Shown in pieces: positions 10,826 to 36,862 of a DNA stretch of 37,215 bases. Position numbers and translations under genes: made by a program. Origin of the DNA: Promethearchaeota archaeon (lineage in GTDB: Archaea; Asgardarchaeota; Hermodarchaeia; Hermodarchaeales; Hermodarchaeaceae). Within the stretch, counting starts at the first letter, position 1, and the number at the start of each line of letters is the position of its first letter. The notes beneath the pieces are model-generated. The model searched no databases and was not told where the DNA came from. It saw only the letters and a list, made by a program, of their open reading frames with translations. The stretch is from positions 1 to 37,215 of the forward strand of contig JBHLPR010000020.1 of NCBI GenBank assembly GCA_048939245.1, in the 5' to 3' direction.

Positions 10826-12403
10826 CTAATTCTTTTGATAGAGAGTGATAGCGATTTGGCTTATCCCGCCCCACTTAGTTTCTTTCCCCGTTGGATAATA
10901 TGTTTCGATTTTTATTGAGTCGTCACTTAGAATGAGTTCGAGTTCCTCAAGCATCCGCAGTTGTTCAGCAACATCCACTGCGCGATAAATGAGTTTCCCA
11001 CGTGCCCGAATGGTAACGGAGCCTTTCCGTTTAATTTGATGCTGGCATGCTCGCACATATTCTACCGTTCTCTTTTTTCCAACATAGACAATATCTTCAA
11101 TCCAGTCTTTTTCAGCCGTAGGAACAGATTCATGGGAGGGAGCAAGTTGAGTAGTGAATTGTGGTGCTTCTTTGGTAGTTCGTGTGATGGTTGAAAATCC
11201 TAAGAGGGGGGGAGTAGGAGTTTCTGTGTCTGAGAATGGAGCCATCTCTTCTGCTTGTTGATCGAGAATTGGAAAAGTTGATGGAGGAGCTTTCGCTTGG
11301 TATGAGTCTAGCTTGGCAATCTCTTCTTCCAGCATCTTCATGGTAAACCGTTGTTTCGGTTTCCAACTTACTGTTCGGTTAAGTAGGTCATTGATGAGTT
11401 TTGGATTTTTTGTATAAATACCCGCCTCGTCTTTTGAAAACAAACTGTCCGTTGTGAGATTTTGCGAGGAGATAAGTGCAGCTTCACCGTCAACGATAAT
11501 ACAATTGGCATGCAGATTGGGACAGGCATGAATCACCACGCGATCATATAAGAACATTTCAATGGCTTCTGGATCCGCTTGGCCTTTCAGCCAATGTTGC
11601 CAACTTACGGAGGTAATCACTTTAACTTGAATGTCTCGCGGGATTGTCTTTAGAATGTATTCAGCAACAGCCATCGAAATAGTGGGAGATACCAGAATGA
11701 TGGATTCCTTCGCTGAGGCAAGAAGATCCTCCAATAAATTGTTCAACCCATTTAAAGTATTTACAAAAACAGTCTTCGTTTTTTGCGGTAATTCAGATGA
11801 AAGAGAATATATCTGGTTAGCTGTCGGATATTCAGCTGAACCTTCATAGAATGCGGCGATATATTGTTGCACTTCCTTTACAAGAGAAGGATCAGAGGCT
11901 ATGAGACCTAATTCGTGAGCGTTTCGGGATTCCTTGGACGAAATATCTGCTGAACCTACAGACACCCTTTCTTCCGTTGCAATTATTTTGAAATGGATAC
12001 GTGGCCTGTGGATAACTTCGACAGCCCGATTCAACGGTTGGCTCATTTGTTGAAGAAGGTCGGAATTGGTTTTATTAGCAACAATTGTTCGCAGAATTAT
12101 TGAGTTATCCGTTGTATCAAGCAGTGTCCGAAATTTCGACTCTGTGAGGCGAGGAAATCCTAACCAAACGAATATTTCAGCAGACTGGATTAAGTATGAA
12201 TATTCCGATTCATAATTTGGGTCGCCCAAGTAAAGAGGGTCTTTGATGTGTTTCTCATCAGCGACTGAAAGTAAATCTATGATAATGGGAAAGATTTTCG
12301 TCTGAATCTTGTGATGAAACTCCCATATGAACATCAAGATTACTGAGCCTATGATAAGAATAATGGCTAACGCAGGAAACATTTCCGAACCTAGCTCGCC
12401 CAT
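10826..12403 (-). CDS. Membrane-anchored protein: N-terminal TM + two degenerate phospholipase D-like domains + Pro/Thr linker + C-terminal Alba domain
   Basis: TM at aa ~9-27. HFKIIATEERVSVGSAD and HANCIIVDGEAALISSQNLT are PLD-type motifs. The last 89 aa (VYVGKK...Y...TIRARGKLIYRAVDVAE...ISQIAITL) are Alba-like. Confidence 0.82.
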   Translation of the reverse strand: MGELGSEMFPALAIILIIGSVILMFIWEFHHKIQTKIFPIIIDLLSVADEKHIKDPLYLGDPNYESEYSYLIQSAEIFVWLGFPRLTESKFRTLLDTTDNSIILRTIVANKTNSDLLQQMSQPLNRAVEVIHRPRIHFKIIATEERVSVGSADISSKESRNAHELGLIASDPSLVKEVQQYIAAFYEGSAEYPTANQIYSLSSELPQKTKTVFVNTLNGLNNLLEDLLASAKESIILVSPTISMAVAEYILKTIPRDIQVKVITSVSWQHWLKGQADPEAIEMFLYDRVVIHACPNLHANCIIVDGEAALISSQNLTTDSLFSKDEAGIYTKNPKLINDLLNRTVSWKPKQRFTMKMLEEEIAKLDSYQAKAPPSTFPILDQQAEEMAPFSDTETPTPPLLGFSTITRTTKEAPQFTTQLAPSHESVPTAEKDWIEDIVYVGKKRTVEYVRACQHQIKRKGSVTIRARGKLIYRAVDVAEQLRMLEELELILSDDSIKIETYYPTGKETKWGGISQIAITLYQKN

Positions 12404-18545: not shown

Positions 18546-19199
18546 TCATTTGTCAGGCGTCTCAGTTTTCGATTCTTTGGGGAATAGAATCTTGGCGATG
18601 CCGTTTCGGTCTTTTTCCTCTATTTGATTGAGGAGAGTTTCTATTCGATAATCCACAGTGATATTGCCTTCTTTGTTTTGAACCATGACCCCACCAAGCA
18701 TGTCCACGACCTCTTTTCCAACCGCAACTTTCGCGCTTTGTCCCGCGCCTTTTGAGATTGCTGTTCCAAGGCCGGTTATTTTTGAGATTACAGGACGATC
18801 TTCCTTTCGAGCAAGAATCACTAATTCTCCGCCACCAATCTGAATCCCGGCATTGATTATTAGGTTTTTTAGGAAGGTTTTGTATTTGGCAGTACCCCGT
18901 TCTTTTTCAAATCGTTTTCTCGCTTGATCGAAAGCCTGGGTGATCATATTCGCTTTGGCATTCATGGTTCGCATATGTGCATCGTTCCGAGCCTTCCCAA
19001 TCAGTCGATCACCTGAAGCCTGTGCCATTTGCTTCCGTCGATCTACCCAACCAGCGAGATTTGATCGGGCATTCTCAAGAGCTTCCTCACCAAGTTGTCG
19101 GGCAGCAATTTCCGCGTCCTTGATGATTTTATTAGCTTCAGCTTTGGCTTCTTCGATGATTGTGTTTTGAATTTGTTCGCCCGCTGAGGAAGTACTCAT
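18546..19199 (-). CDS. atpE: A/V-type ATP synthase subunit E (peripheral stalk)
   Basis: N-terminal coiled coil (IIEEAKAEANKII) and C-terminal MLGGVMVQNKEGNITVDYRIE...IAKILF motif. Confidence 0.9.
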   Translation of the reverse strand: MSTSSAGEQIQNTIIEEAKAEANKIIKDAEIAARQLGEEALENARSNLAGWVDRRKQMAQASGDRLIGKARNDAHMRTMNAKANMITQAFDQARKRFEKERGTAKYKTFLKNLIINAGIQIGGGELVILARKEDRPVISKITGLGTAISKGAGQSAKVAVGKEVVDMLGGVMVQNKEGNITVDYRIETLLNQIEEKDRNGIAKILFPKESKTETPDK

Positions 19200-19522
19200 T
19201 TCGCTGCACCTCCGAAGGAATATACTGCGGAGACGATGAAGTCCACCGTCTTCTTCATGTTCTTAGCCCCTTGCTCTTCAATGGCAGCGGCCTCCTTGTC
19301 TGCTTTGCCAAGGATAGTTTTCGATTGGGTGTTGGCTTTTTTCTCCACTTCAGTACGGAGGGCATCAATCTCTTCAGCTAATTCACTCCGAACCTTCTGT
19401 TCGGTTTCACGCGCTTGCCGCTCTGCATCACGTTGGATTTGTTCTGCTTTGGCCTGCGCTTTCTCAATTATCTTGGCTGCTTCAGCTTCGGCTTTCTGAA
19501 CGCCAGTTAGGACCTCGCTCAT
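19196..19522 (-). CDS. atpH: A/V-type ATP synthase subunit H (G)
   Basis: MSEVL..VQKAEAEAAKIIEKA coiled coil of ~108 aa; overlaps the atpE start (ATGA). Confidence 0.82.
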   Translation of the reverse strand: MSEVLTGVQKAEAEAAKIIEKAQAKAEQIQRDAERQARETEQKVRSELAEEIDALRTEVEKKANTQSKTILGKADKEAAAIEEQGAKNMKKTVDFIVSAVYSFGGAAK

Positions 19523-19735
19523 CGTTAACACCGAGAGATATTCATAATCGTTGAGCCGTTAATCGCCTTTCAACGATGACCTATCCTAATAAACCTTTAC
19601 GCTATACAGACTTAGCCTATTTGGTTAAGGGGATGGCGAAGCATTTACCGAAACGGAATAACCGTTCTAGCTCTGAGTGCTTCAGGTTTTCATCGTGCTT
19701 ACCCAAGCAAGGCTCAAAGCTCAGTAAATTGGTTC

Positions 19736-21460: not shown

Positions 21461-21688
21461 ATGAGTGATGAACCCCCCGTCTCAATGGGAAAGGCATTCC
21501 GTTACACTACCATCGCATGTGAGATTCTCGTTTTTGCGATGGTTGGATGGATTATTGGACCTTATATCTGGGGACCAAACGGACAATATCTTGGAGCTCT
21601 TATTGGGGCATTGGTTGGCACATTAATGATGTTTTGTACCTTGTTCTATTTAGCAGGACTCTTTGGTAAAAAGGAGGAACAAGCGTAA
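21461..21688 (+). CDS. Small two-TM protein resembling the AtpZ/AtpI (ATPase gene 1) family
   Basis: GGTGA RBS before ATG 21461; 75 aa; AFRY..IACEI......GW.IG......Y.G..IG...G pattern; immediately upstream of atpC. Confidence 0.6.
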   Translation: MSDEPPVSMGKAFRYTTIACEILVFAMVGWIIGPYIWGPNGQYLGALIGALVGTLMMFCTLFYLAGLFGKKEEQA

Positions 21689-21728: not shown

Positions 21729-22778
21729 ATGTCAGTCGCACGATACAGTTTCATCAATGCAAAAATCAGAGGATATAAGGCAGATATGCTTACATCCGAC
21801 CATTGGGACGCCTTGCTTGGAGCACGAGATATGTATGCAGCCCTCCGAGTACTTGATACAACGAGTTACTCAGAAATCGTTAAAGACTTTGATGAAACCG
21901 CATTGCCCCAAGAAGTCGAACAAGCTCTACAATTAGATTTCAACCGAGTTCTTTCAGAAATCCATGTCGATATCCCAAAAGGTTCACAACCCTTAATGAA
22001 CTGGATAACACGGAAGTTCCAGCGTGAAGTGGTCAAACCTATTCTCCGATTGTATGTCACCGATAAAGAGCCAAGTCTTGCTGAAAAATTGTTAGTTCCA
22101 GTTGATCCCTTTACCATTGAAGTGCTTTTGAACCTGTTAAAAGCTAAAGATCTTAATGAATTTGTGTCAAAGCTTCCAGATCCTTACTTTCGCCATATTA
22201 TCAGAGAATACCTTCCACAATATGAGGAAACTGATCGACTTGTAATCATCGAGCAGGCAATAGACGCCGATATTTTACAAAACCTATTTTTTGAAGCACA
22301 AAAGCAGAAGGGATTAGATAAAGAGGTCACTACGAAACTCGCAGGTGTTGAAATCGACCTAGTAAACCTGATGACGACACTTCGCACATTCTTTCTAGGA
22401 ATCGAAAAAGCAGAGGCGGAAGCACTTCTACTCGATACCGAATATAGGCTTTCTCGCGCTCTGTGTAAGGAAGCCCTTGCTGCCAGAAGCTTTGAAGAAC
22501 GAGTTCGAAAACTCCAAGAAAGCTCATATGGCTCTATGATTGCTAGTAGCTGGGAAGCCTACCAACTTCACCAAACCCTCTACGCCTTTGAACATACGTT
22601 CCTAGAACAAATACGCCGAAATAGCATCGACGCATTACTCGGCTATCCTTTCCATTTTGGAATTGTCTTAGGTTACCTGAACCTGAAATGGTATGAAATA
22701 GTGAATTTGAAAGCCCTCATGAATGGCAAAGCAGACCAAATAGATTCAAATATCATTCGTCGCATCCTCATCCTCTAA
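21729..22778 (+). CDS. atpC: A/V-type ATP synthase subunit C (d)
   Basis: YSFINAKIRG...L, EIDLVNLMTTLR, YL.LK..EIVNLK..NGK...I motifs; 349 aa. Confidence 0.93.
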   Translation: MSVARYSFINAKIRGYKADMLTSDHWDALLGARDMYAALRVLDTTSYSEIVKDFDETALPQEVEQALQLDFNRVLSEIHVDIPKGSQPLMNWITRKFQREVVKPILRLYVTDKEPSLAEKLLVPVDPFTIEVLLNLLKAKDLNEFVSKLPDPYFRHIIREYLPQYEETDRLVIIEQAIDADILQNLFFEAQKQKGLDKEVTTKLAGVEIDLVNLMTTLRTFFLGIEKAEAEALLLDTEYRLSRALCKEALAARSFEERVRKLQESSYGSMIASSWEAYQLHQTLYAFEHTFLEQIRRNSIDALLGYPFHFGIVLGYLNLKWYEIVNLKALMNGKADQIDSNIIRRILIL

Positions 22779-24818: not shown

Positions 24819-26672
24819 CTAAATCTGCATGATGAGCATGAACGCCACAAGCAACGTATAAATCGCTAACGCTTCTGCAAGCACCACTGGCACCATCGAC
24901 TTACTGAACACCTCAGGCTTATTCACCAAAGCACCCACCATCGATGCCCCCGCCCAACCAATCGCCACACCCGCAACAAGACCACCCAATCCAACAGTCG
25001 CAGCCGCAGCCGTACCAACCCAAGCTGTTCCGATAACAACCCGATCAAGACCCATAACTAACATAAACGAAGCTAACAATCCATAAATTCCTAAGGCTTC
25101 CGCTAACACTACAGCTACAAGTCCCTTACTGAACGTCTCTGGAGCTTGCCGCAAACTTCGACTCAAAGACGCACCACCTAACCCAATACCAACTCCACCA
25201 CCAATAGCAGCAAGAGCAATCGACAATCCTGCAGCAATCGACAACAACCCTTGGGCAACGCCGGCGACATTATCAATTGACATCACCGTCATAAATCCGA
25301 TTAACAGACCATAGATCCCTAGTGCTTCTGCTAAAACTACTGAAACCAAACCTTTACTGAAGGTTTCAGGTCGATCAGCAATCGTATCACTCAACGACTC
25401 GCCTGCATATGCAATTCCAAATCCCGCACCGATACAAGCAACCCCAATAGCGATACCCGAACCAATAGCCAAAAGACCTTGACCTGTGAAAATCGAAGGA
25501 TCTGAATTCAACCTGTCAGCTCCCATAATTAACATAAATGATAAGAGAAGACCATAAATTCCTAAAGCCTCAGCTAAAACGACGCTGACGAGACTCTTGG
25601 AAAAGGCGTCAGGTGCGCGGACAAGACTGCGTGAAAGGGCTCCACCTGCTTTAGCAATGCCAAATCCAGCGCCAATTGCAGCAAAACCGATGGCAATCGC
25701 TGCGCCGAGACTCACTAATCCCTGACCCCCCTCAACTGTGATATTGGGAACCATCATTAAAAGCATGAAGCTAACTAACAGCCCATAAATCCCTAATGCT
25801 TCGGCGAGGACGACGGAGACGAGGCCTTTACTGAAGACCTCGGGGCGTTCTACGAGTGCATCAGAAAGTGCCTCTCCACTATTTGCGATTCCAATGCCTG
25901 CTCCAAGTCCTGCGAGTCCAATGGCTAAGCCTGCGGCGATTGCGACAAGACCAGAGGTGAGTAGAGTAGCGCCTTCAATTTCCATGAGAAGCATGAAGCT
26001 GGCTAACAGCCCATAAATCCCGAGGGCTTCCGCTAACACCACACTAACCAGCCCCTTACTGAACGATTCGGGGGCCCGAACCAAGGCTTTACTTAATGCT
26101 GAACCAGATTTTGCGATACCTATTCCAGCACCAATAGCGGCTAGACCAATAGCCAAGCCAGCAGCGATGGCGATGTATCCTGATGCGATATTTGTGACGC
26201 CTTCAATGTTCATAAGGAGCATGAAGCTGGCTAACAGCCCATAAATCCCAAGGGCTTCCGCTAAGACGACGCTGACGAGGCTTTTGCTGAAGGTTTCAGG
26301 GGCTTCAGCGATGCTGGTGCACATGCTACTCCCAGCATATGCGATGCCTATGCCAGCACCGATGGCGGCAACGCCTATGGCGAGTCCAGCACCAAGGGCG
26401 ACAAATCCTTGTGCGGGTTCGGTGATGCTTGGGAGTTGCATGAGAATCATGAATGAGGCTAGGAGGCCATAGATCCCGAGTGCTTCGGCGAGGACGACGG
26501 CGATCATGCTTTTGCTGAACGTTTCGGGTTTTTCAGCGATGGTGCCGATCATGGCGCTGCCGCTGAATCCGATGCCGATGGCTGCACCTAGAGCGCCGAG
26601 ACCTGCGGCAAGCAGTGCGCCGAAGGTGGCAAGAACCTGTCCCATGGCTTCAGGGGGTATCAGCTGCAGCAT
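24819..26672 (-). CDS. atpK: A-type ATP synthase proteolipid subunit K (c) with eight fused hairpins
   Basis: Eight ~76-aa repeats, each with Gly-rich helix 1, P-E/D-x-FSK loop and VVLAEAL(G/A)IY(G/T)LL helix 2. ATG 26672 lies 5 bp after the atpI stop (617 aa). Confidence 0.96.
   Translation of the reverse strand: MLQLIPPEAMGQVLATFGALLAAGLGALGAAIGIGFSGSAMIGTIAEKPETFSKSMIAVVLAEALGIYGLLASFMILMQLPSITEPAQGFVALGAGLAIGVAAIGAGIGIAYAGSSMCTSIAEAPETFSKSLVSVVLAEALGIYGLLASFMLLMNIEGVTNIASGYIAIAAGLAIGLAAIGAGIGIAKSGSALSKALVRAPESFSKGLVSVVLAEALGIYGLLASFMLLMEIEGATLLTSGLVAIAAGLAIGLAGLGAGIGIANSGEALSDALVERPEVFSKGLVSVVLAEALGIYGLLVSFMLLMMVPNITVEGGQGLVSLGAAIAIGFAAIGAGFGIAKAGGALSRSLVRAPDAFSKSLVSVVLAEALGIYGLLLSFMLIMGADRLNSDPSIFTGQGLLAIGSGIAIGVACIGAGFGIAYAGESLSDTIADRPETFSKGLVSVVLAEALGIYGLLIGFMTVMSIDNVAGVAQGLLSIAAGLSIALAAIGGGVGIGLGGASLSRSLRQAPETFSKGLVAVVLAEALGIYGLLASFMLVMGLDRVVIGTAWVGTAAAATVGLGGLVAGVAIGWAGASMVGALVNKPEVFSKSMVPVVLAEALAIYTLLVAFMLIMQI
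25762..26249. repeat. Near-identical 32-bp direct repeats at 228-bp spacing inside atpK
   Basis: AGCATGAAGCTGGCTAACAGCCCATAAATCCC is exact at 25990-26021 and 26218-26249, with 2 mismatches at 25762-25793. Confidence 0.85.
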
Positions 26673-26677
26673 TGCTA

Positions 26678-28624
26678 TCACGTCTTGGCAGTGGGTTCGG
26701 TGGTTGTCCATTTCTCGGGGAGTGCAAGCGGCTTATACTCATACCCCGTGCCAGCGTAGAATTTTAGAAATGCCTCCACCCAGAGCAAACGCAGGCTGTG
26801 AATGAAAGAAAGGAGACCCTCCATGAGGAGGACGAAGACTGAGGCGAGGACGAGCATGGCAATAAGCATAACAATGAACATGGTTCCTTCTGTGGCTATT
26901 TGGTAGAGGATAGAATTGATTTCAGCTGCTGCGACACCGCCGATGAAGAGGAAGGTTTTGGCGAAGCCGGCGTGGGCCATGTTGAGGGCGAGTATTCGGG
27001 AGTAGCTGATGGTGTTGCTGATGCTTTCGATGAGTTTTTCGATGCCTTCCATGAATCCTTCCATGAAGCCAAAAACAACGATACCTCCGATGAACATGAT
27101 GACGGCGGGTAATATGAGGAAGAGGACCATGTCGATAAGGGGCCAGCTCATGAAGTTGATGCCATAGTTGAAGATCATGTAAGCGAGACCCCAGAGGAAG
27201 GCGAGCCAGATGATGGGACCAAAGATAGCGTGGCGAAAGTCGCGGTGGCGGAGCTTATTGATAGCACTAAAGCCGATGGCGATACTGAGGTGGATGAAAC
27301 CAATCATGATGCTGAGGACGAAGAGAATCCAGGTCGGACTGGCGATATAAGCAGGAAGAAGTTCAGGCATTTCAAAGGCACTGAACCAGATTTGAGTTGG
27401 ATGGCCATGGGCGCCGCTGGTGACGAGCCATTCGTTATAGGGGCTTTCCGCAAGGACGAACCAGTTGATGCCCCCCTCAAAGTCGAAGAAACGGAACAAA
27501 TTGAGTAGAACATCTCGCATTCCTGTTCCAAAGGGCGATACTTTGAGTTGTTGATATACATACACGCCACCCACTTGGAGACCGGCAATGTCAATGCCGA
27601 GAAACTCGGCGTATAAGACGCCAAAAAAGATAGACGATATGCCCAACATCATTAGGAGCCCTGAGCCCTGTATGAAGTAGTTGACCATCTCGCCGGCATC
27701 GATGTTCCGGCGCTTGGCAATGAACCCAAGGGATGAGAAAAATACAAGTAAGAGCCCATGGCCGATGTCACCGAACATAAGGCCAAAGAATAATGGTAGG
27801 CTGAGGAGGAGGAACCATGCTGGGTCGATTTCGGTATGGTGTGGGAGGCCGAAGGCGTTAGTGAGGATTTGGGCGCTTCTAGCCCAACGTGAGTTTTTTT
27901 GTTTGGTTGGTGGCGCCACGGGTTCTTCAGAGGTAATCGCACCTTCGAGGGGCCCTGTGTCCCCAGCGTAATGCTCGTGTTCGGGTTTGTCGATGTGCTT
28001 CTCAATGGTGAGGGCGACGGTGCCGTTTCCGTGTTTTTCTAGGATTTGGGTGAATTTTTTTTCTTTTTTGGTTGGAATCCATCCATACATGACATAGGTG
28101 CGATGTGTTTTGCCGAAGAGGGTTTTCGTTTCTTCGATTTGATGTTCTCGTTTGAGGAGTTCTTCCCACCCGAGCAACTCAAAACGTTTCTCTTCGGCGT
28201 AGGCTTCGATTTCTTTTTTCGTTGCCTTTTTGACCTTTTTGTCCCCAGCGGCTTCAGCAGCTTCGAACTTCTTGGTGAGGTCTGCGAAGTCATCTTCGAT
28301 GGCTTTGAGGTTCTTTTCCATTGCTTCGAAGTAAGTTTCATCGGGGATGTCAGGAACTTCAAGACGATTTTTGACTGATCCTCCCCGATACACTTTCATG
28401 TCTGTCATGAGGGAGGTGAGTCGAGTTAGTAGGTTGGAGAGGTAATAGAAACGTTCAGAGGCTTCAACTGGAGTGAGGGCTTTAAGGTGTTTTTTCTGAC
28501 TTTCTTTCACGTCGGAAAAGTGGACGAGCTCGGTGCTTGCCATAAGGCGCAAGGTTGCGTCCATGTCAGTGTCCAGTACCACGGCTGTGAGGTTACTCAT
28601 TTTCGCTGGGAGCATCGGAGCCAA
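26678..28624 (-). CDS. atpI: A-type ATP synthase subunit I (a)
   Basis: GWIP, PPT, EIDP, FFGLMFGDIGHG, SNTISYSRILAL (essential Arg), HSLRLLWVEAF..FY.G.G motifs. Confidence 0.96.
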   Translation of the reverse strand: MAPMLPAKMSNLTAVVLDTDMDATLRLMASTELVHFSDVKESQKKHLKALTPVEASERFYYLSNLLTRLTSLMTDMKVYRGGSVKNRLEVPDIPDETYFEAMEKNLKAIEDDFADLTKKFEAAEAAGDKKVKKATKKEIEAYAEEKRFELLGWEELLKREHQIEETKTLFGKTHRTYVMYGWIPTKKEKKFTQILEKHGNGTVALTIEKHIDKPEHEHYAGDTGPLEGAITSEEPVAPPTKQKNSRWARSAQILTNAFGLPHHTEIDPAWFLLLSLPLFFGLMFGDIGHGLLLVFFSSLGFIAKRRNIDAGEMVNYFIQGSGLLMMLGISSIFFGVLYAEFLGIDIAGLQVGGVYVYQQLKVSPFGTGMRDVLLNLFRFFDFEGGINWFVLAESPYNEWLVTSGAHGHPTQIWFSAFEMPELLPAYIASPTWILFVLSIMIGFIHLSIAIGFSAINKLRHRDFRHAIFGPIIWLAFLWGLAYMIFNYGINFMSWPLIDMVLFLILPAVIMFIGGIVVFGFMEGFMEGIEKLIESISNTISYSRILALNMAHAGFAKTFLFIGGVAAAEINSILYQIATEGTMFIVMLIAMLVLASVFVLLMEGLLSFIHSLRLLWVEAFLKFYAGTGYEYKPLALPEKWTTTEPTAKT

Positions 28625-30439: not shown

Positions 30440-32074
30440 TTATGGTGGGAGCAGTTGGAGTGCGCCATAGGCTGCTTGGGTTGCGAAGTCAATGAAGATG
30501 CTGGGGAAGAGACCGAAGAGGATAATGAAGACCATCATAACCCCAATGACGAATAGAAAGAGCCAGTGTGGGCGTTCGGCAGTAGCAGCCTCGGGGCTTG
30601 GTTCTGCGAAGAGAAGAATTTGTATCATTCGCAAGTAATAGACGACGCTGAAGGCGCTCATCAACACCATGATGATTGATGCTAGATAGGTTTGGGCGAT
30701 GATGGAGCCCCAGATGATGTAGAATTTACTGTAGAACCCAACCAGTGGCGGGACGCCAGCGAGAGAAAGAGCTGCGATGGTGAAGCAGAACATTACGAAG
30801 GGCATTCGACGGCCAATGCCTTGGAGTTTGTCAAAGTCACGGGTTCCGATTTGGTGTAGGAAAATGCCTGCGATTAAGAAGAGCATGCCCTTTGCCAGCA
30901 TATGGCTGAAGATATGTGCCAGACTTCCTGTCACTGAGTATAGGAGTGCGCTATCCACGGAGGCTGAAGTGGGGAGCCAAAGGGTTAGGGGCATTAGCGC
31001 AATGCTGAACCCGAAGATTATGTATCCCACATTCACAATGGTGGAGAAGGCAAGAAGGCGTTTCAGATCTTTTTGTGTGAGAGCCATTAGGTTCCCATAG
31101 ATCATGGTAAATAGGGCGAACCAACTGAGCACAACTCCATAATAGATGAAGACAGCCGGATCATAGAAGAGCACGAGTAATCGGATAATTGCATAAGCTC
31201 CTGTCATGATGACCACGCCGCTAAGCATGGCGCTAATCCCACTGGGAGCAGCCGGATGGGCATCGGGAAGCCAAGTACAGAGAGGTGCAATTGCCGCTTT
31301 GACACCAAACCCAATAATTAATCCTACGATGGTGAAGATGAGGACACCATAGATAGGTGAGCTAGCTGCAGGTGGACCAGCGAGTAGAGCAGTGATAGCC
31401 ACCCCTATTTCATAGAGATTGATGGTGCCTGTTAATCCATAGAGAATGGACATGGTGAAGAGTATCAATGTGGACCCGACTGCGCTTAGTAAGAGATATT
31501 TGATTCCAGCTTCGAGCGGTTCGGCTTCATCGCGGCGGAAGGCAACGAGGACATAACTGCTGATTGACATGGTTTCCCACAGGATGAACAATGTGAAGAA
31601 GTCTCCAGCAAAAATAACCCCAATCATTCCACCGATTAATGTGAGGAGAAGCGCATAATAGAGTGGGATGCGTGTGTCATGTTCCATGTATTTGATAGAG
31701 TAAAGGGAAACGAAGAAGGCAAGAAAGAGGAAAATGACGGCCATATAGACGGTGAGTAAGTCGATACGGAAGAAGGTGGCTCCAGTTGCGGCATCATAGG
31801 CGCCGAGTGGCCAATACCAGATATCGATTGGAGCCCAGCCATTGTGAAAGAGTTGCCAGTAAAGACCATAGGTTGAACCCAGGGGTCCCAAGTCTATGAG
31901 GATGGGCGAAAGTACGAAGACTAAGCTGATGAGAAAGAAGACGGCGGCGAGGATGCCTAATATTGTCTTACGACGATCTTGCCAGAATTTTCCAAGAAGT
32001 GCTATGATAAGTGCTCCGACGAAGGGTAGCCAGAGGGGGATGAGTTGAATCCATTCTATCGGTCCGATTGCCAT
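30440..32074 (-). CDS. nuoN: Antiporter-like subunit, NuoN/MrpD type
   Basis: WETMSISSY.LV, EAGIKY, GVKAAIAP...WLPDAHPAAPS, KRLLAFS, GVPPLVGFYSK motifs; last gene of the J-K-L-M-N run. Confidence 0.8.
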   Translation of the reverse strand: MAIGPIEWIQLIPLWLPFVGALIIALLGKFWQDRRKTILGILAAVFFLISLVFVLSPILIDLGPLGSTYGLYWQLFHNGWAPIDIWYWPLGAYDAATGATFFRIDLLTVYMAVIFLFLAFFVSLYSIKYMEHDTRIPLYYALLLTLIGGMIGVIFAGDFFTLFILWETMSISSYVLVAFRRDEAEPLEAGIKYLLLSAVGSTLILFTMSILYGLTGTINLYEIGVAITALLAGPPAASSPIYGVLIFTIVGLIIGFGVKAAIAPLCTWLPDAHPAAPSGISAMLSGVVIMTGAYAIIRLLVLFYDPAVFIYYGVVLSWFALFTMIYGNLMALTQKDLKRLLAFSTIVNVGYIIFGFSIALMPLTLWLPTSASVDSALLYSVTGSLAHIFSHMLAKGMLFLIAGIFLHQIGTRDFDKLQGIGRRMPFVMFCFTIAALSLAGVPPLVGFYSKFYIIWGSIIAQTYLASIIMVLMSAFSVVYYLRMIQILLFAEPSPEAATAERPHWLFLFVIGVMMVFIILFGLFPSIFIDFATQAAYGALQLLPP

Positions 32075-32090
32075 CTTTTTTCAGCCTCCA

Positions 32091-33650
32091 TTATGGGGGA
32101 ACAAGGGGAAACCCTGGTGGATACCAGGGGAATTGTTGTGTTAACGCAACGAAGATTGGGTTTACCACAAGCATCGGCCAGATACCGATGATAATGATAA
32201 ATGCTGCAAGTAGAGTCATGGAGAGTCGCATCGTCCAGGGACTCTCGGTGATTTGTTCCATATCCGCTGGCGTTTCACCGAAGAAAACGCGTTTAATGAA
32301 CCACAGGATGTAAGCCGCTGTCAAGGCAGAGCCGGCTACACCGAGTATCACCAACCATACACTGTAAGCAAAGGCAGCTCCAGCAAAGATGAAGAATTCG
32401 GAGAAGAAGCCAGCAAGTGGTGGTGTACCTGCGATGCTTAATCCAGCGATGAGCGCAATAGTCGCGGTCCATGGCATCTTTCTCGCTAGACCTCCTAAAG
32501 CGTTGATATCTCGGCCACGTTGATGTCCTACTTGGACGATGAGGACACCGGCGACCATAAACAAGAGCCCTTTACCCAGAGCGTGGGTAAAGATATGGAA
32601 GGCAGCCCCTGTAACACCGAGTAGAACTGCGGTTCCTAGCCCAAAGAAGATGTAGCCCATCTGGGAGATGGAGGAGTATGCAAAGAGGCGTTTGGTATCC
32701 TTTTGGGCAAGCGCCATCACGCCACCGTAGAACATGGTCACAATACCAAAGATCAGAATTACCATGACAAAGGTTCCGAATGCGGGGAGCATATAGCCCA
32801 TTAAAATTCGCACAATCGCATACGCAGCGGTGGCTATCATAACACCAGATAAGATTGCACTGATGGGTGTCGGGGCTTCAGCGTGAGCATCAGGAAGCCA
32901 CGAGTGGATTGGAAAGATTGCCATTTTCACGGCAAATCCGATGGTAAGGAGAACCACCAGAATCTTTGCGATTTCAAAGAATGGCGCTGTGAGAATTGAG
33001 GGGATTCCACCTGGCCAAATCCAGCTCAAATCAATATAGGGAATTCCACCCCCGAAGTTGTATAGATTTAGGGTGGCAACACCATTGTAGGCAGAGAGGG
33101 CATACATGCCAGCGATGCCTATGATGATGAGAACAGCACCAACGTGGGTATAGATGAAGTACTTCAGAGCGATGTTCGTGGATTGGGGTTTGGTGCCCCA
33201 TTCAGCGATTAGGAAGTAGCTGGGGATAAGCATGAGTTCCCAGAAGACATAGAACTGGAAGAGGTTGGTTGCGATGACAACACCAAAGATTCCTGCATTG
33301 TATAAGAGCAGTAAGGCGTAGTATTTTCCGTGTCCATGTTCTTTCTGCATGTAGACGAGTGAATAGATAGTTGCAGCTAGGGTGAGGAGGATGACGATGC
33401 CCGCCACCGTTACGCTTAGCCCATCTAAGAGCCACCCAAAGACAAAGGGTCCCCAAACGAATGGTTCTGCATAGACACCGTTTAACATGAATTCCCACCA
33501 GGCTAGAATGAAAGTGACTAGGCTAGCAAGCATGATGAGAACAGCGAAAATTCCAGCGTATCGTCCGTTCCGTCGTCCAATTAGATAAGCGATGAGAGAG
33601 CCAATTGTCATGAGCAACACAGTGATTGTGAGCCAGGGTAAGAGCGCCAT
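32091..33650 (-). CDS. nuoM: Complex I-like subunit M
   Basis: FYVFWELMLIPSYFLI, KYFIYT, AVKMAIFPIHSWLPDAHAEAPTP, AYSSISQMG, GFFSEF motifs. Confidence 0.9.
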   Translation of the reverse strand: MALLPWLTITVLLMTIGSLIAYLIGRRNGRYAGIFAVLIMLASLVTFILAWWEFMLNGVYAEPFVWGPFVFGWLLDGLSVTVAGIVILLTLAATIYSLVYMQKEHGHGKYYALLLLYNAGIFGVVIATNLFQFYVFWELMLIPSYFLIAEWGTKPQSTNIALKYFIYTHVGAVLIIIGIAGMYALSAYNGVATLNLYNFGGGIPYIDLSWIWPGGIPSILTAPFFEIAKILVVLLTIGFAVKMAIFPIHSWLPDAHAEAPTPISAILSGVMIATAAYAIVRILMGYMLPAFGTFVMVILIFGIVTMFYGGVMALAQKDTKRLFAYSSISQMGYIFFGLGTAVLLGVTGAAFHIFTHALGKGLLFMVAGVLIVQVGHQRGRDINALGGLARKMPWTATIALIAGLSIAGTPPLAGFFSEFFIFAGAAFAYSVWLVILGVAGSALTAAYILWFIKRVFFGETPADMEQITESPWTMRLSMTLLAAFIIIIGIWPMLVVNPIFVALTQQFPWYPPGFPLVPP

Positions 33651-33661
33651 CTTGAATCACC

Positions 33662-35827
33662 TCAGGGTAGGAAGGGAATAGGTAAGAGCAGTACGCCTCC
33701 AATGAACTGAAACAGGATCAGGAGGAGGATGAGGACTAAGGCACCGATGAGCAGCAGAATCATGTTCCAACTGTGGACACCGGTTTGAATTCGACGCCAC
33801 CGACGGCTCAATCCCATTGAGCCATCAGCGATTAGGTAATTTGCACCTTCAATGCCTTTGAGTTCGACCTTGTCGAATAGTTCTCGAGCGAAGGCTAAGC
33901 CTCCGTCAATGAAGACTTTGTAGAGGAAGGCATTCCAATACCAGCGTTTGTAGAGGAATTTATACAAGCCACCTAGAGCACCCCTTCCCACGAAGTCAGG
34001 ATTCCAGCTTCGACGGATGTAGAACATGTAACCAAGGAATCCACCAATTAAAACAATCAACAGCGAGATGTAGAATGTTGGAGATTGAATGAGGTGCACA
34101 AACATGTGAATGTATTCTTCTACTAATGTTGCTAGGTGGGGTGGATTGGGAATCAGAGTATACTGAACATCCCAGAAAGAATAGAAGAATTGTTTAAACA
34201 CAGGTTCGAGGAAGCCAACTACAATTGTGGCAATAGCAAGAATTGCCAGGGGAACCCACATCACTGCAGGGGGATCATGTGCGGGTTTGCCTTCTGCTTC
34301 AAGATCACGGACATTTTTGCTTGGGTCACCGTAGAAGGTGAGACCAAACATGCGGAAGGCATAGAAGATAGTCATCACAGCGGTAAAAGCACCAAAGAAT
34401 AGGAATATCCAGCCCCATGGACTGCCCGCCATGCCTAGTTCATAGGCAGAAGTTAGGATGAGTTCTTTACTCCAGAAAGCTCCGATGAAGGGAAAGCCAC
34501 CCAGAGAGAGGACACCAATGAGCATTACGAGCCAAGTGATTGGCATGAGTTTACGGAGGCCGCCCATATCATTCATGTATTTACTGTGAACGGCATGGAG
34601 TACTGCACCCGCGGAGAGGAAGAGTAATGCTTTGAAGACTGCATGGGCTGCGAGATGAAAGACCCCAGCGGTATAACCGAGAACCCCGTCTGCGGCGAAA
34701 GCGAAGATTCCAAGTGCCATGAACATGTAACCCAATTGGCTAATAGTGCTAAATGCAAGGACTTTTTTCAATTCATTTGAGACTAACGCCATTGTAGCTG
34801 TCATGAAGGATGTGAACATTCCAATAACGGCAATGATGAGGAAGAAGTTACTCAGAACAACAGCTGCAATCGTTGCACTAGCAGCAAAAAAGCCTGAAAC
34901 TAAAATCGGTGCCATGCGAGCGACCAAATAGACACCAGCTTTCACCATTGCGGCAGCATGGATAAGAGCCGATACGGTGGTTGGTCCAGCCATGGCTTCG
35001 GGAAGCCAGATCTGCAATGGGAATTGAGCGCTTTTGCCAACGGGCCCGAGGAAGAAGAGTAGAAATACACCAAACAGGAGAACTCCGTTCAAAATGGAAG
35101 CCATGTTGAAGAGCCAATTAAAATCAGAGAGTAGAACCTGATAGTTGAGAGTCGGAGTACCTGCAGATACGGTGAAGAAGAAAATAAAGATAATCGAAAT
35201 GAGTAAGCCGACATCGCCGACCCGGGTGACGATGAATGCCTTCATTCCGCAATGTGAATTGTATTTCCCTTCAGTAAGGTCACCCAACTGATCATCATGC
35301 ATCATGTTGGATCGATTATACCAGAAGCCAATCAAGGCATAGGAGCAGAGTCCAACAATTTCCCAACCGATGAATGTGACAAAAAGGGTGTTAGCCATTA
35401 CCAGAAGTGTCATACCGCCGATGAATAGTTGCATGAAGAACCAATAGCGGGTAAGTGAAGTGTCGCCGTCCATATAGCCTAAGCTGTAGACGAGAATGAG
35501 AAAGCCGAGACCAGTGGCGACACAAGACATGAATACTGAGAGCGGGTCAACGAGCATTCCAAACTGAATTGTACCAATGATGGGGATGGTCAACCAGTTA
35601 ATCGAGGTTTCATACCAGAGCAACCACGGTTCTGCTCCTGTTCCCCCGATCCATGTTGCACCAGCCCAAATGAATGGAAGCATGGATAAGGCCATGACTA
35701 AGCCTAATCCACCGAAGATGACAGCTCCGATGTCACGAAGGCGTGGATGAATTTTTGCAAAAATTGGTGTAAGGAAAGCCCCAATGATTGGGAATAACCA
35801 GCAAAACCAAGCAGCGTAAGGAAGCAT
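33662..35827 (-). CDS. nuoL: Complex I-like subunit L
   Basis: GWEIVGLCSYALIGFW, KAFIVTRVGD, GKSAQFPL..WLPEAMAGPT.VSALIHAA.MV, HAVFKALLFL, SKE; C-terminal lateral helix with QTG. Confidence 0.93.
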   Translation of the reverse strand: MLPYAAWFCWLFPIIGAFLTPIFAKIHPRLRDIGAVIFGGLGLVMALSMLPFIWAGATWIGGTGAEPWLLWYETSINWLTIPIIGTIQFGMLVDPLSVFMSCVATGLGFLILVYSLGYMDGDTSLTRYWFFMQLFIGGMTLLVMANTLFVTFIGWEIVGLCSYALIGFWYNRSNMMHDDQLGDLTEGKYNSHCGMKAFIVTRVGDVGLLISIIFIFFFTVSAGTPTLNYQVLLSDFNWLFNMASILNGVLLFGVFLLFFLGPVGKSAQFPLQIWLPEAMAGPTTVSALIHAAAMVKAGVYLVARMAPILVSGFFAASATIAAVVLSNFFLIIAVIGMFTSFMTATMALVSNELKKVLAFSTISQLGYMFMALGIFAFAADGVLGYTAGVFHLAAHAVFKALLFLSAGAVLHAVHSKYMNDMGGLRKLMPITWLVMLIGVLSLGGFPFIGAFWSKELILTSAYELGMAGSPWGWIFLFFGAFTAVMTIFYAFRMFGLTFYGDPSKNVRDLEAEGKPAHDPPAVMWVPLAILAIATIVVGFLEPVFKQFFYSFWDVQYTLIPNPPHLATLVEEYIHMFVHLIQSPTFYISLLIVLIGGFLGYMFYIRRSWNPDFVGRGALGGLYKFLYKRWYWNAFLYKVFIDGGLAFARELFDKVELKGIEGANYLIADGSMGLSRRWRRIQTGVHSWNMILLLIGALVLILLLILFQFIGGVLLLPIPFLP

Positions 35828-35846
35828 TTTTCTTTTTCACCCCAAG

Positions 35847-36182
35847 TTAATGTCGCAGTTTGTTGAGTTTTCGGATATCGAGGGTTCCGAATTTATTGTA
35901 AGCTCGAATGATGAATGCCAAGGCAATTGCGATGATACCACCACCAATAGAGATACTAGCGATGACAATCGCCTGAGCCATCAAGTCAATGTAAAAGCCC
36001 GACCAAGCTGTAGAGAATACAATGAAATTCAAATGAGCTCCGTCGAGTAATAATTCCAGAGCGATGAGGAATTTAATCATGTTGCGTTTGGTAGCCATAC
36101 CATAAATACCGACAGCATACAGTAAGACGGCTAAGATCAGAAACGCTTCGAGTGGAACACCTAAGATTTCAAGAAAAGACAT
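35847..36182 (-). CDS. nuoK: Complex I-like subunit K
   Basis: Three TMs; GIYG..TKRN.IK.LIALELL; C-terminal FGTLDIRKLNKLR. Confidence 0.88.
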   Translation of the reverse strand: MSFLEILGVPLEAFLILAVLLYAVGIYGMATKRNMIKFLIALELLLDGAHLNFIVFSTAWSGFYIDLMAQAIVIASISIGGGIIAIALAFIIRAYNKFGTLDIRKLNKLRH

Positions 36183-36188
36183 TTTCTC

Positions 36189-36497
36189 CTACTCCTTCCC
36201 CTCAGTTTCTGTAGGTTTTTTCGTCACTTCATAGAAGAATGCGGAACTAGCTAATGCCGCCGCAAACAAGAACACGCCTAACAAGGCCATATCTAAACCC
36301 CGATAATGCCATAGCATATTACCCAAAGACTGAATCATGACATACACGTTCTCCGGTGTCGCAAAAAACCGAGTCGCAAACGCCGCAGGGTCAAGAAGAC
36401 TGGGATCCAAATACAAACTGGTAGCCATAGCAATCACATAGGCTGCAACCACTCCAAACATCAAAGTAAGTATAAAACCAATAACTTTGATTTTCAT
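36189..36497 (-). CDS. Complex I-like subunit J, C-terminal half (with MnhB-like YRGLD motif)
   Basis: Two TMs; SLGNMLWHYRGLDMALLGVFLFAAAL; located between the J N-terminal half and K. Confidence 0.65.
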   Translation of the reverse strand: MKIKVIGFILTLMFGVVAAYVIAMATSLYLDPSLLDPAAFATRFFATPENVYVMIQSLGNMLWHYRGLDMALLGVFLFAAALASSAFFYEVTKKPTETEGKE

Positions 36498-36862
36498 CAG
36501 ACGTCCTCCTCTTCAATTTCCCCAGTCCCACGACGCGTCGTCAACGAAATTCCTGAAATAATCAGAACCGAAACGGCCCCCGCATACACTGCAAGTTGGA
36601 AGAAGGCGACCCAGATGGCAAAAAGCGCTAAATAGAGTAAGGCGAGGGTGATAGCTGAGCCAGCGAGGTAGAGTGCGGCATGTAGGAGGTCTTTGTCTTC
36701 GATGGCTAGCACTGCAAAGACGGCCGTCATGATGATCAATATGTAGAATGTGAGAGCTGGGAGAATCAACATAAAAATGATCATCAGAATTGATAAAACG
36801 ATTAATGCAAGAATCCCAATAGTAACAGTGCGTGATAATGACATCATTGGGCACTCCGTCAC
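36497..36862 (-). CDS. nuoJ: Complex I-like subunit J, N-terminal half
   Basis: DLLHAALYL...LY..L.A..VA..QL.VYAGAVSVL motif. Start may be ATG 36847. Confidence 0.8.
   Translation of the reverse strand: MTECPMMSLSRTVTIGILALIVLSILMIIFMLILPALTFYILIIMTAVFAVLAIEDKDLLHAALYLAGSAITLALLYLALFAIWVAFFQLAVYAGAVSVLIISGISLTTRRGTGEIEEEDV

Follow-up and report, generated by a model that had tools for sequence, protein, structure and literature searches.

One, two and three peripheral stalks are treated as the hallmark of F-, A- and V-type rotary ATPases, respectively (PMC3293630), and in the Thermus enzyme each globular subdomain of subunit a binds one EG stalk (PMC7367684). The atpI gene of a Hermodarchaeia genome raises the question of how the stator of an A-type ATP synthase is held when the soluble arm of subunit I has a single lobe. 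Loss of the distal lobe had been proposed for positions 28085-28327, corresponding to atpI residues 97-177, of a 37,215-nt stretch of DNA (the window), which is the whole of contig C92 in a 2.5-Mb, 88% complete metagenome assembly (G000). The gene and its parts are listed below; residues are numbered from the ATG at 28615, and an upstream TTG at 28624 adds 3.

26678-28615, minus strand: atpI, A-type ATP synthase subunit I/a, short-arm form, 645 aa (PF01496, E 3e-49)
28514-28600, minus strand: N-terminal half of the proximal lobe, residues 6-34 (strand, helix, strand; AlphaFold2 model, profile match 2-121)
28397-28456, minus strand: conserved helix, residues 54-73 (alignment and AlphaFold2 model)
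28247-28339, minus strand: outgoing linker helix, residues 93-123, shortened (AlphaFold2, pLDDT > 90)
28238-28249, minus strand: deletion junction and hairpin turn, residues ~123-126, with ~120 residues absent (Thermus a ~108-227)
28124-28240, minus strand: returning linker helix, residues 126-164 (AlphaFold2 model)
27998-28099, minus strand: C-terminal half of the proximal lobe with the GWIP motif, residues 173-206 (AlphaFold2 model)
27917-27997, minus strand: His/acid/Pro-rich low-confidence insert, residues 207-233 (alignment; pLDDT < 50 over 210-233)
26681-27832, minus strand: membrane domain with the essential Arg540 and the MAHA, MEGL, HSLRL and WVE motifs (aligned to V-ATPase a subunits)

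The atpI product scored 168 bits against PF01496 (cut-off 30.7), which places it in the family, and was the only subunit I ORF found in the assembly. R540 lies within SYSRI and, like the MAHA, MEGL, HSLRL and WVE motifs, aligns with eukaryotic subunit a, so that the channel residues are present. By alignment, the His/acid/Pro-rich insert is longest in Hermodarchaeia, and part of the membrane domain (~27300-27580) is ~50 residues longer than in most homologs, with 257 residues instead of 195-212 between two motifs; because of these two additions, the total length of subunit I looks normal. GWIP lies at residue 178 and EIDP at 262. The original prediction had put them at ~181 and ~265, which is exact when counted from the TTG, and had expected GWxP to lie normally ~100 residues further in; in full-length homologs GWxP was indeed found mostly at ~270-300, and the EIDP position mostly at 330-360.

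A profile of 42 full-length arms matched subunit I at profile positions 2-121 and 243-357 only (E 8e-17 and 2e-29). The intervening gap, 122-242, forms one block and therefore represents a single deletion, excluding dispersed small deletions; an alignment with both lobes, which would have spoken against the proposed loss, likewise did not appear. A second profile, to which the Thermus, Meiothermus and Enterococcus chains align over their full length, was used to map the gap onto Thermus subunit a at ~108-227, a stretch that covers the distal lobe together with the linker's outer third. The mapped gap includes L144, R196, A197 and E201, through which the Thermus distal subdomain contacts subunit d (PMC7367684), while the positions of the proximal d contacts E57, H65 and Q106 (PMC7367684) fall in the retained part. 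By alignment, helix 54-73 appears to be the Thermus helix bearing E57 and H65, and it may also contact rotor subunit C/d in Hermodarchaeia.

An AlphaFold2 model of the arm, built on 32 short arms, contained helices 93-123 and 126-164 joined by a two-residue turn (pLDDT > 90 over 91-180) and no strand between residues 35 and 172, leaving only the proximal alpha/beta lobe and a short helical hairpin. This agrees with the original reading of a charged helical hairpin at EAAEAAGDKK (residues 118-127) without an alpha/beta segment. When superposed on the Thermus arm (6LY9 chain N), the model matched it (Z 15.1, rmsd 3.2, 214 residues aligned) and ~108-227 had no counterpart; a full-length Asgard arm folded alike as a control retained both lobes, with ~295 residues aligned. 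We conclude that the distal lobe is gone, as had been proposed, and that about two thirds of the linker are kept as a capped hairpin. The same junction was found in more than 40 homologs of 30-93% identity, and an 862-base contig from public runs, the best of which may be the source sample, also spans it; an assembly error is excluded on these grounds. Conservation is lowest, though only slightly, at the hairpin tip (108-142; mean entropy 1.99 versus 1.4-1.9), which is charged, has hydrophobic residues mainly at coil-core positions and accepts insertions of 4-38 residues. Since it is poorly conserved, hydrophobic mainly in the coil core and tolerant of insertions, the tip is unlike a binding site.

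The arm thus retains the proximal alpha/beta lobe, the inner coiled coil and the membrane domain with its essential Arg found in Thermus thermophilus a/I (6LY9, 6QUM, 6R0Z), but without ~108-227 it has neither a distal EG site nor a distal contact with subunit d. The N-terminal domain of Meiothermus ruber I (3RRK) and Enterococcus hirae NtpI (8WCI) belong to the same family, match the full-arm profile end to end and, unlike the Hermodarchaeia arm, are both two-lobed barbells; the E. hirae enzyme has dual stalks (PMC10382590). As the two-lobed soluble arm of the Thermus/Enterococcus two-stator layout was lacking by profile, AlphaFold2 model and control model, we do not class the enzyme as a canonical two-stator one. 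Short subunit I proteins (428-458 aa; P0103, P0115, P0147) from bacterial V/A operons, probably actinobacterial, also lack the distal lobe, but their deletion is larger, with most or all of the linker gone, and they form a separate branch in both trees; two of their loci (L074:8001-9377 and L075:8001-9317, for P0147 and P0115) encode subunits of 438-458 aa. No structure or paper was found for these bacterial forms.

To account for the missing lobe, we searched for a separate gene encoding it. An exhaustive six-frame search of this genome found none (best E 0.1 and 0.25, the latter for the best stand-alone match), and a profile search of 19 short-arm genomes, including a single-contig Odin genome, also found none; the alternative that the lobe is encoded elsewhere, which the original prediction had named against itself, was therefore not borne out. 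The only distal-profile matches in the 19 genomes were weak (E 0.003-0.03) and fell on the proximal lobe of subunit I itself. The distal-lobe profile detected most full-arm controls at E 1e-9 to 1e-36 and missed families f9 and f16, so that its sensitivity is limited. An Odin ORF near atpI that resembles the start of the lobe was rejected (E 0.07-0.25, opposite strand). The separate subunit C of the eukaryotic V-ATPase collar (PF03223) gave no match at E <= 1 in five short-arm genomes (G000, G008, G019, G045 and G066), a search that could miss a very distant homolog. Subunit E was encoded by one gene per genome searched, and no second or altered E or H gene was seen, E and H being of normal length. 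Neighbouring genes considered as substitute anchors in Odin, f20, Bathyarchaeia and Nitrososphaerota had no arm-profile match, were not found in the Hermodarchaeia genome by tblastn and were rejected; the only extra gene common to short-arm neighbourhoods encodes a membrane protein of ~75 aa.

Subunits A, B, C, D, E, F, H, I and K are all encoded in the genome, as in an A/V-type enzyme, at scattered sites: I-K, C and H-E in the window, F, A and B on C81, and D on C76. Genome searches gave one match each for I, E, A, B and D, and PF02874 found only the A and B genes in the 88% complete genome, with no F-type head. The other ATPase genes of the window are:

24819-26672, minus strand: atpK, the proteolipid (617 aa), immediately after atpI, with AEAL in each of its eight hairpins (PF00137, eight matches)
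21729-22778, plus strand: atpC, subunit C/d, the rotor socket, of normal length (PF01992, E 1e-50)
21461-21688, plus strand: AtpZ-like gene ahead of atpC, for a small membrane protein of two helices (tblastn, E 6e-10 and 1.5e-10)
19196-19531, minus strand: atpH, G-like stalk subunit, of normal length (weak matches to NF006256, E 5e-5, and PF03179, E 9e-4)
18546-19199, minus strand: atpE, stalk subunit E, of normal length, single copy (PF01991, E 1e-27; alignment)

The identity of atpH was taken from these weak family matches together with alignment to Asgard H. The AtpZ-like gene is conserved in Odin and Baldr (L076:11832-12074, L079:13557-13772) and is too small to stand in for the lobe; at L120:9427-10563 it appears fused to the front of a C-like protein. 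Elsewhere in the window, the product of 10826-12403 (minus strand) combines two PLD-like domains with an Alba domain at its C-terminus, and 30440-36862 holds a stand-alone operon for an Mrp/complex-I-like membrane arm; in Hermod, Odin and Baldr, such an operon is found close to the genes for the membrane part of the ATPase (L037, L055, L076, L079). Promoter and terminator counts were near shuffle levels.

The stop codon of atpI and the likely start of atpK are separated by 5 bases, and the two genes are probably co-transcribed. From co-transcription the original prediction had linked the short arm to the eight-hairpin proteolipid as parts of one remodelled motor, and had proposed to check whether the two co-occur in relatives. 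The link did not hold. Subunit K has 8 hairpins in this genome and 8, 15 or 7 + 3 in other Hermodarchaeia (L043, L046, L047, L049, L051, L052), the last form being a 7-hairpin K with a second ORF of ~548 aa that holds only 3 hairpins; the same short arm occurs with 1 hairpin in Odinarchaeia, 2 + 1 in Baldrarchaeia and 2 in f20, and coupling fails for that reason. The multi-hairpin K is a separate change, confined to Hermodarchaeia in our sample, and the deletion predates the proteolipid fusion and is far more widespread.

Among 161 Asgard genomes, the one-piece short-arm profile match was found only in Hermodarchaeia, Odinarchaeia, Baldrarchaeia and family f20; a direct check of representative loci from 15 other Asgard families revealed a full arm. 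Breakpoints in the short-arm families agree within ~20 profile positions, and nearly all short forms keep a hairpin of similar length. A search of 50%-identity representatives added ~20 further divergent short-arm clusters (467-624 aa), three of them labelled Nitrososphaerota, Bathyarchaeia and Ranarchaeia. A search by shape yielded a subunit I cluster of 560 aa, to be taken only as a lead, and an ESM Atlas feature search had no informative match. In a tree with the variable region left out, 20 short-arm sequences formed one group (support 97/90). In a wider, unconstrained tree the lobe-less state needs at least 4 changes, and holding all 46 archaeal lobe-less rows together was not rejected (p-AU 0.153); these are single LG+G4 trees, which do not fix the order of events. 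The short arm is old and widespread, common to several uncultured archaeal lineages.

Several other subunit I arrangements were seen in these searches. In P0047-P0049, P0251 (labelled Bathyarchaeota), P0050-P0058, P0298, P0304, P0316 and P0345, arms of normal or greater length have a middle segment unmatched by the distal-lobe profile, which in P0047-P0049 looks like an inserted helical element, unrelated to the lobe, at the tip of the hairpin; these proteins nest among the short-arm forms. At L120:7001-9430 (P0231), and also in P0255 and P0275, the short one-lobe arm is duplicated in tandem (809 aa), which in P0231 would restore two proximal-type lobes. Doubled short arms, or a new tip domain, in relatives hint that a second contact has been selected for. 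Heimdallarchaeaceae subunit I (1042-1048 aa; L113:11603-14746, L114:9282-12407 and L115:8735-11863, minus strand, for P0164, P0165 and P0175) carries two full soluble arms in tandem, the extra one folding as a two-lobed barbell, a change opposite to the loss of the distal lobe. Wukongarchaeota subunit I (L059:2754-4955; P0182, P0206), beside a two-hairpin proteolipid (2199-2678), grouped with eukaryote-like subunit a in both trees (99/95 and 100/98); with two rows only and LG+G4, long-branch attraction is possible. Isolate Kor1 (G163, labelled Thermoproteota; L053, L124) encodes a short subunit I of the Baldr type and also a second complete operon, in which subunit I (780 aa) is partly duplicated internally; the genome is possibly a mixed bin. 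In G002 and G017 (L013/L014), of different genera, subunit I matches had the same score and ORF length, and G017 has a second one; bin contamination is probable.

The short form was the only subunit I found in four genomes (G000, G019, G045 and G066), and Arg540 and the channel motifs are intact; for these reasons it most likely works as the stator subunit of the one rotary ATPase detected in the cell. Each of the two Thermus lobes carries one EG stalk, and these stalks remain on the arm in isolated Vo after V1 leaves (PMC7367684), so that stalk number plausibly follows lobe number. Because subunit I has no second docking site, we propose, and lean towards, one anchored E-H stalk instead of two. 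The proximal lobe would still dock one E-H stalk, which would carry the counter-torque between A3B3 and the membrane domain, and the leftover hairpin would lie beside rotor subunit C/d as a brace that keeps the proximal contacts, whereas the distal lock found in isolated Thermus Vo would be missing. When the arm was modelled in complex with two E-H pairs, the prediction scored 0.33 against 0.02 for the best control, a weak signal that may reflect likeness to solved complexes; the runs agreed in at least 81% of contacts, with partner pLDDT of at least 79, but the prediction returned no contacts and so gives no stalk count. Of 80 solved pairs, 58 reached the mark for such predictions, as did 2 of 110 mismatched pairs; at values of 0.60 or less, only 7 solved pairs and both mismatches did so. 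Several points limit the one-stalk reading: each of the three B subunits offers a site for the E head, so that further stalks could be attached at the top and lack an anchor below; a non-homologous second anchor would escape profile searches; the genome is 88% complete and the distal-lobe profile of limited sensitivity; and the doubled short arms and new tip domains of relatives hint at a second contact.

The first of these points leads to an alternative that we regard as unlikely, in which two or three E-H dimers sit on the B subunits, one docked proximally and another free or loosely held by the hairpin tip. The three E-head sites on B are equivalent, Thermus A3B3 binds EG tightly (PMC5758568), the contact between the distal lobe and EG is weak in yeast anyway (PMC3470569), and a hairpin of similar length persists in nearly all short forms. 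However, the tip is poorly conserved, charged and insertion-tolerant, and Thermus stalks stay with the arm when V1 leaves (PMC7367684). The hairpin also ends just past the position of Thermus Q106, a subunit d contact, which explains its retention without a stalk.

It is much less probable that the complex contains two copies of subunit I, each with one stalk and its own ion path, which would double the ions moved per ATP. A two-a-subunit F-type enzyme is known from Chloroflexus (PMC12002316), loss of the distal arm would free room around the rotor, the 15-hairpin proteolipids of relatives would give a large ring, and a high ion/ATP ratio might suit low-energy sediments. On the other hand, solved A/V-type enzymes have a single I/a (PMC3293630 for Thermus), and both lobes would have to sit under B subunits 120 degrees apart. 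We give a similarly low probability to a non-homologous protein acting as the second anchor. The ATPase genes are scattered in short-arm genomes, so that a partner of subunit I need not be adjacent, and Bathyarchaeal relatives have an unrelated helical domain at the tip; yet the neighbours of short-arm genes had no arm-profile match and no counterpart in the Hermodarchaeia genome, with only the ~75-aa membrane protein in common. An artefact, a pseudogene or a split gene with the lobe encoded elsewhere, for which only the 88% completeness of a metagenome assembly would speak, is effectively refuted by a junction common to four Asgard families and present in a single-contig genome, by the intact frame and catalytic residues, and by the E of 0.25 for the best stand-alone lobe match.

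With one anchored E-H stalk, the enzyme would resemble F-type ATP synthase in stalk count, the F-type having a single peripheral stalk. The anchoring is unrelated: the F-type uses membrane-anchored b subunits with delta/OSCP on top, whereas here a soluble E-H would attach off-centre to a single B (PMC3293630). The proximal lobe and membrane core are shared with subunit a of the eukaryotic V-ATPase (Vph1, a1-a4), but there two lobes and a separate subunit C hold three stalks, while the Hermodarchaeia enzyme has one lobe and PF03223 was not found.

The distal-lobe deletion in archaeal subunit I is an undescribed variant; a literature search, with subscription papers mostly outside its scope, found no description of it. 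In a recent phylogenomic preprint, A-ATPases are assumed to have two stalks on one a-subunit and a distal deletion is not mentioned; a 2026 preprint, according to which no complete archaeal A-type structure exists, credits two stalks with the mechanical stability of the A-ATPase (10.64898/2026.10.01.756066). Since the one-lobe arm is part of the only detected ATP synthase of whole lineages, the second stalk may be dispensable; the loss suggests a rotary motor that works on one anchored strut, whereas the enzyme type was thought to be defined by two. The breakpoints, at Thermus a ~108-227, are placed exactly on a cultured, structurally solved enzyme, and the deletion eliminates the distal lock that has been proposed to keep protons from leaking through free Vo. 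More broadly, we think it somewhat probable that an old, widespread class of archaeal A-type enzymes, spanning several Asgard classes and Thermoproteota-like archaea, has a single E-H stalk or two one-lobed I subunits. If so, stalk number would be no A-type hallmark but a labile character that depends on how many lobes subunit I has, with one here, two in Thermus and possibly more in the doubled arms of Heimdallarchaeaceae. These short and doubled arms indicate that the Asgard collar has varied in both directions, and such variation bears on the origin of the three-stalk eukaryotic V-ATPase.
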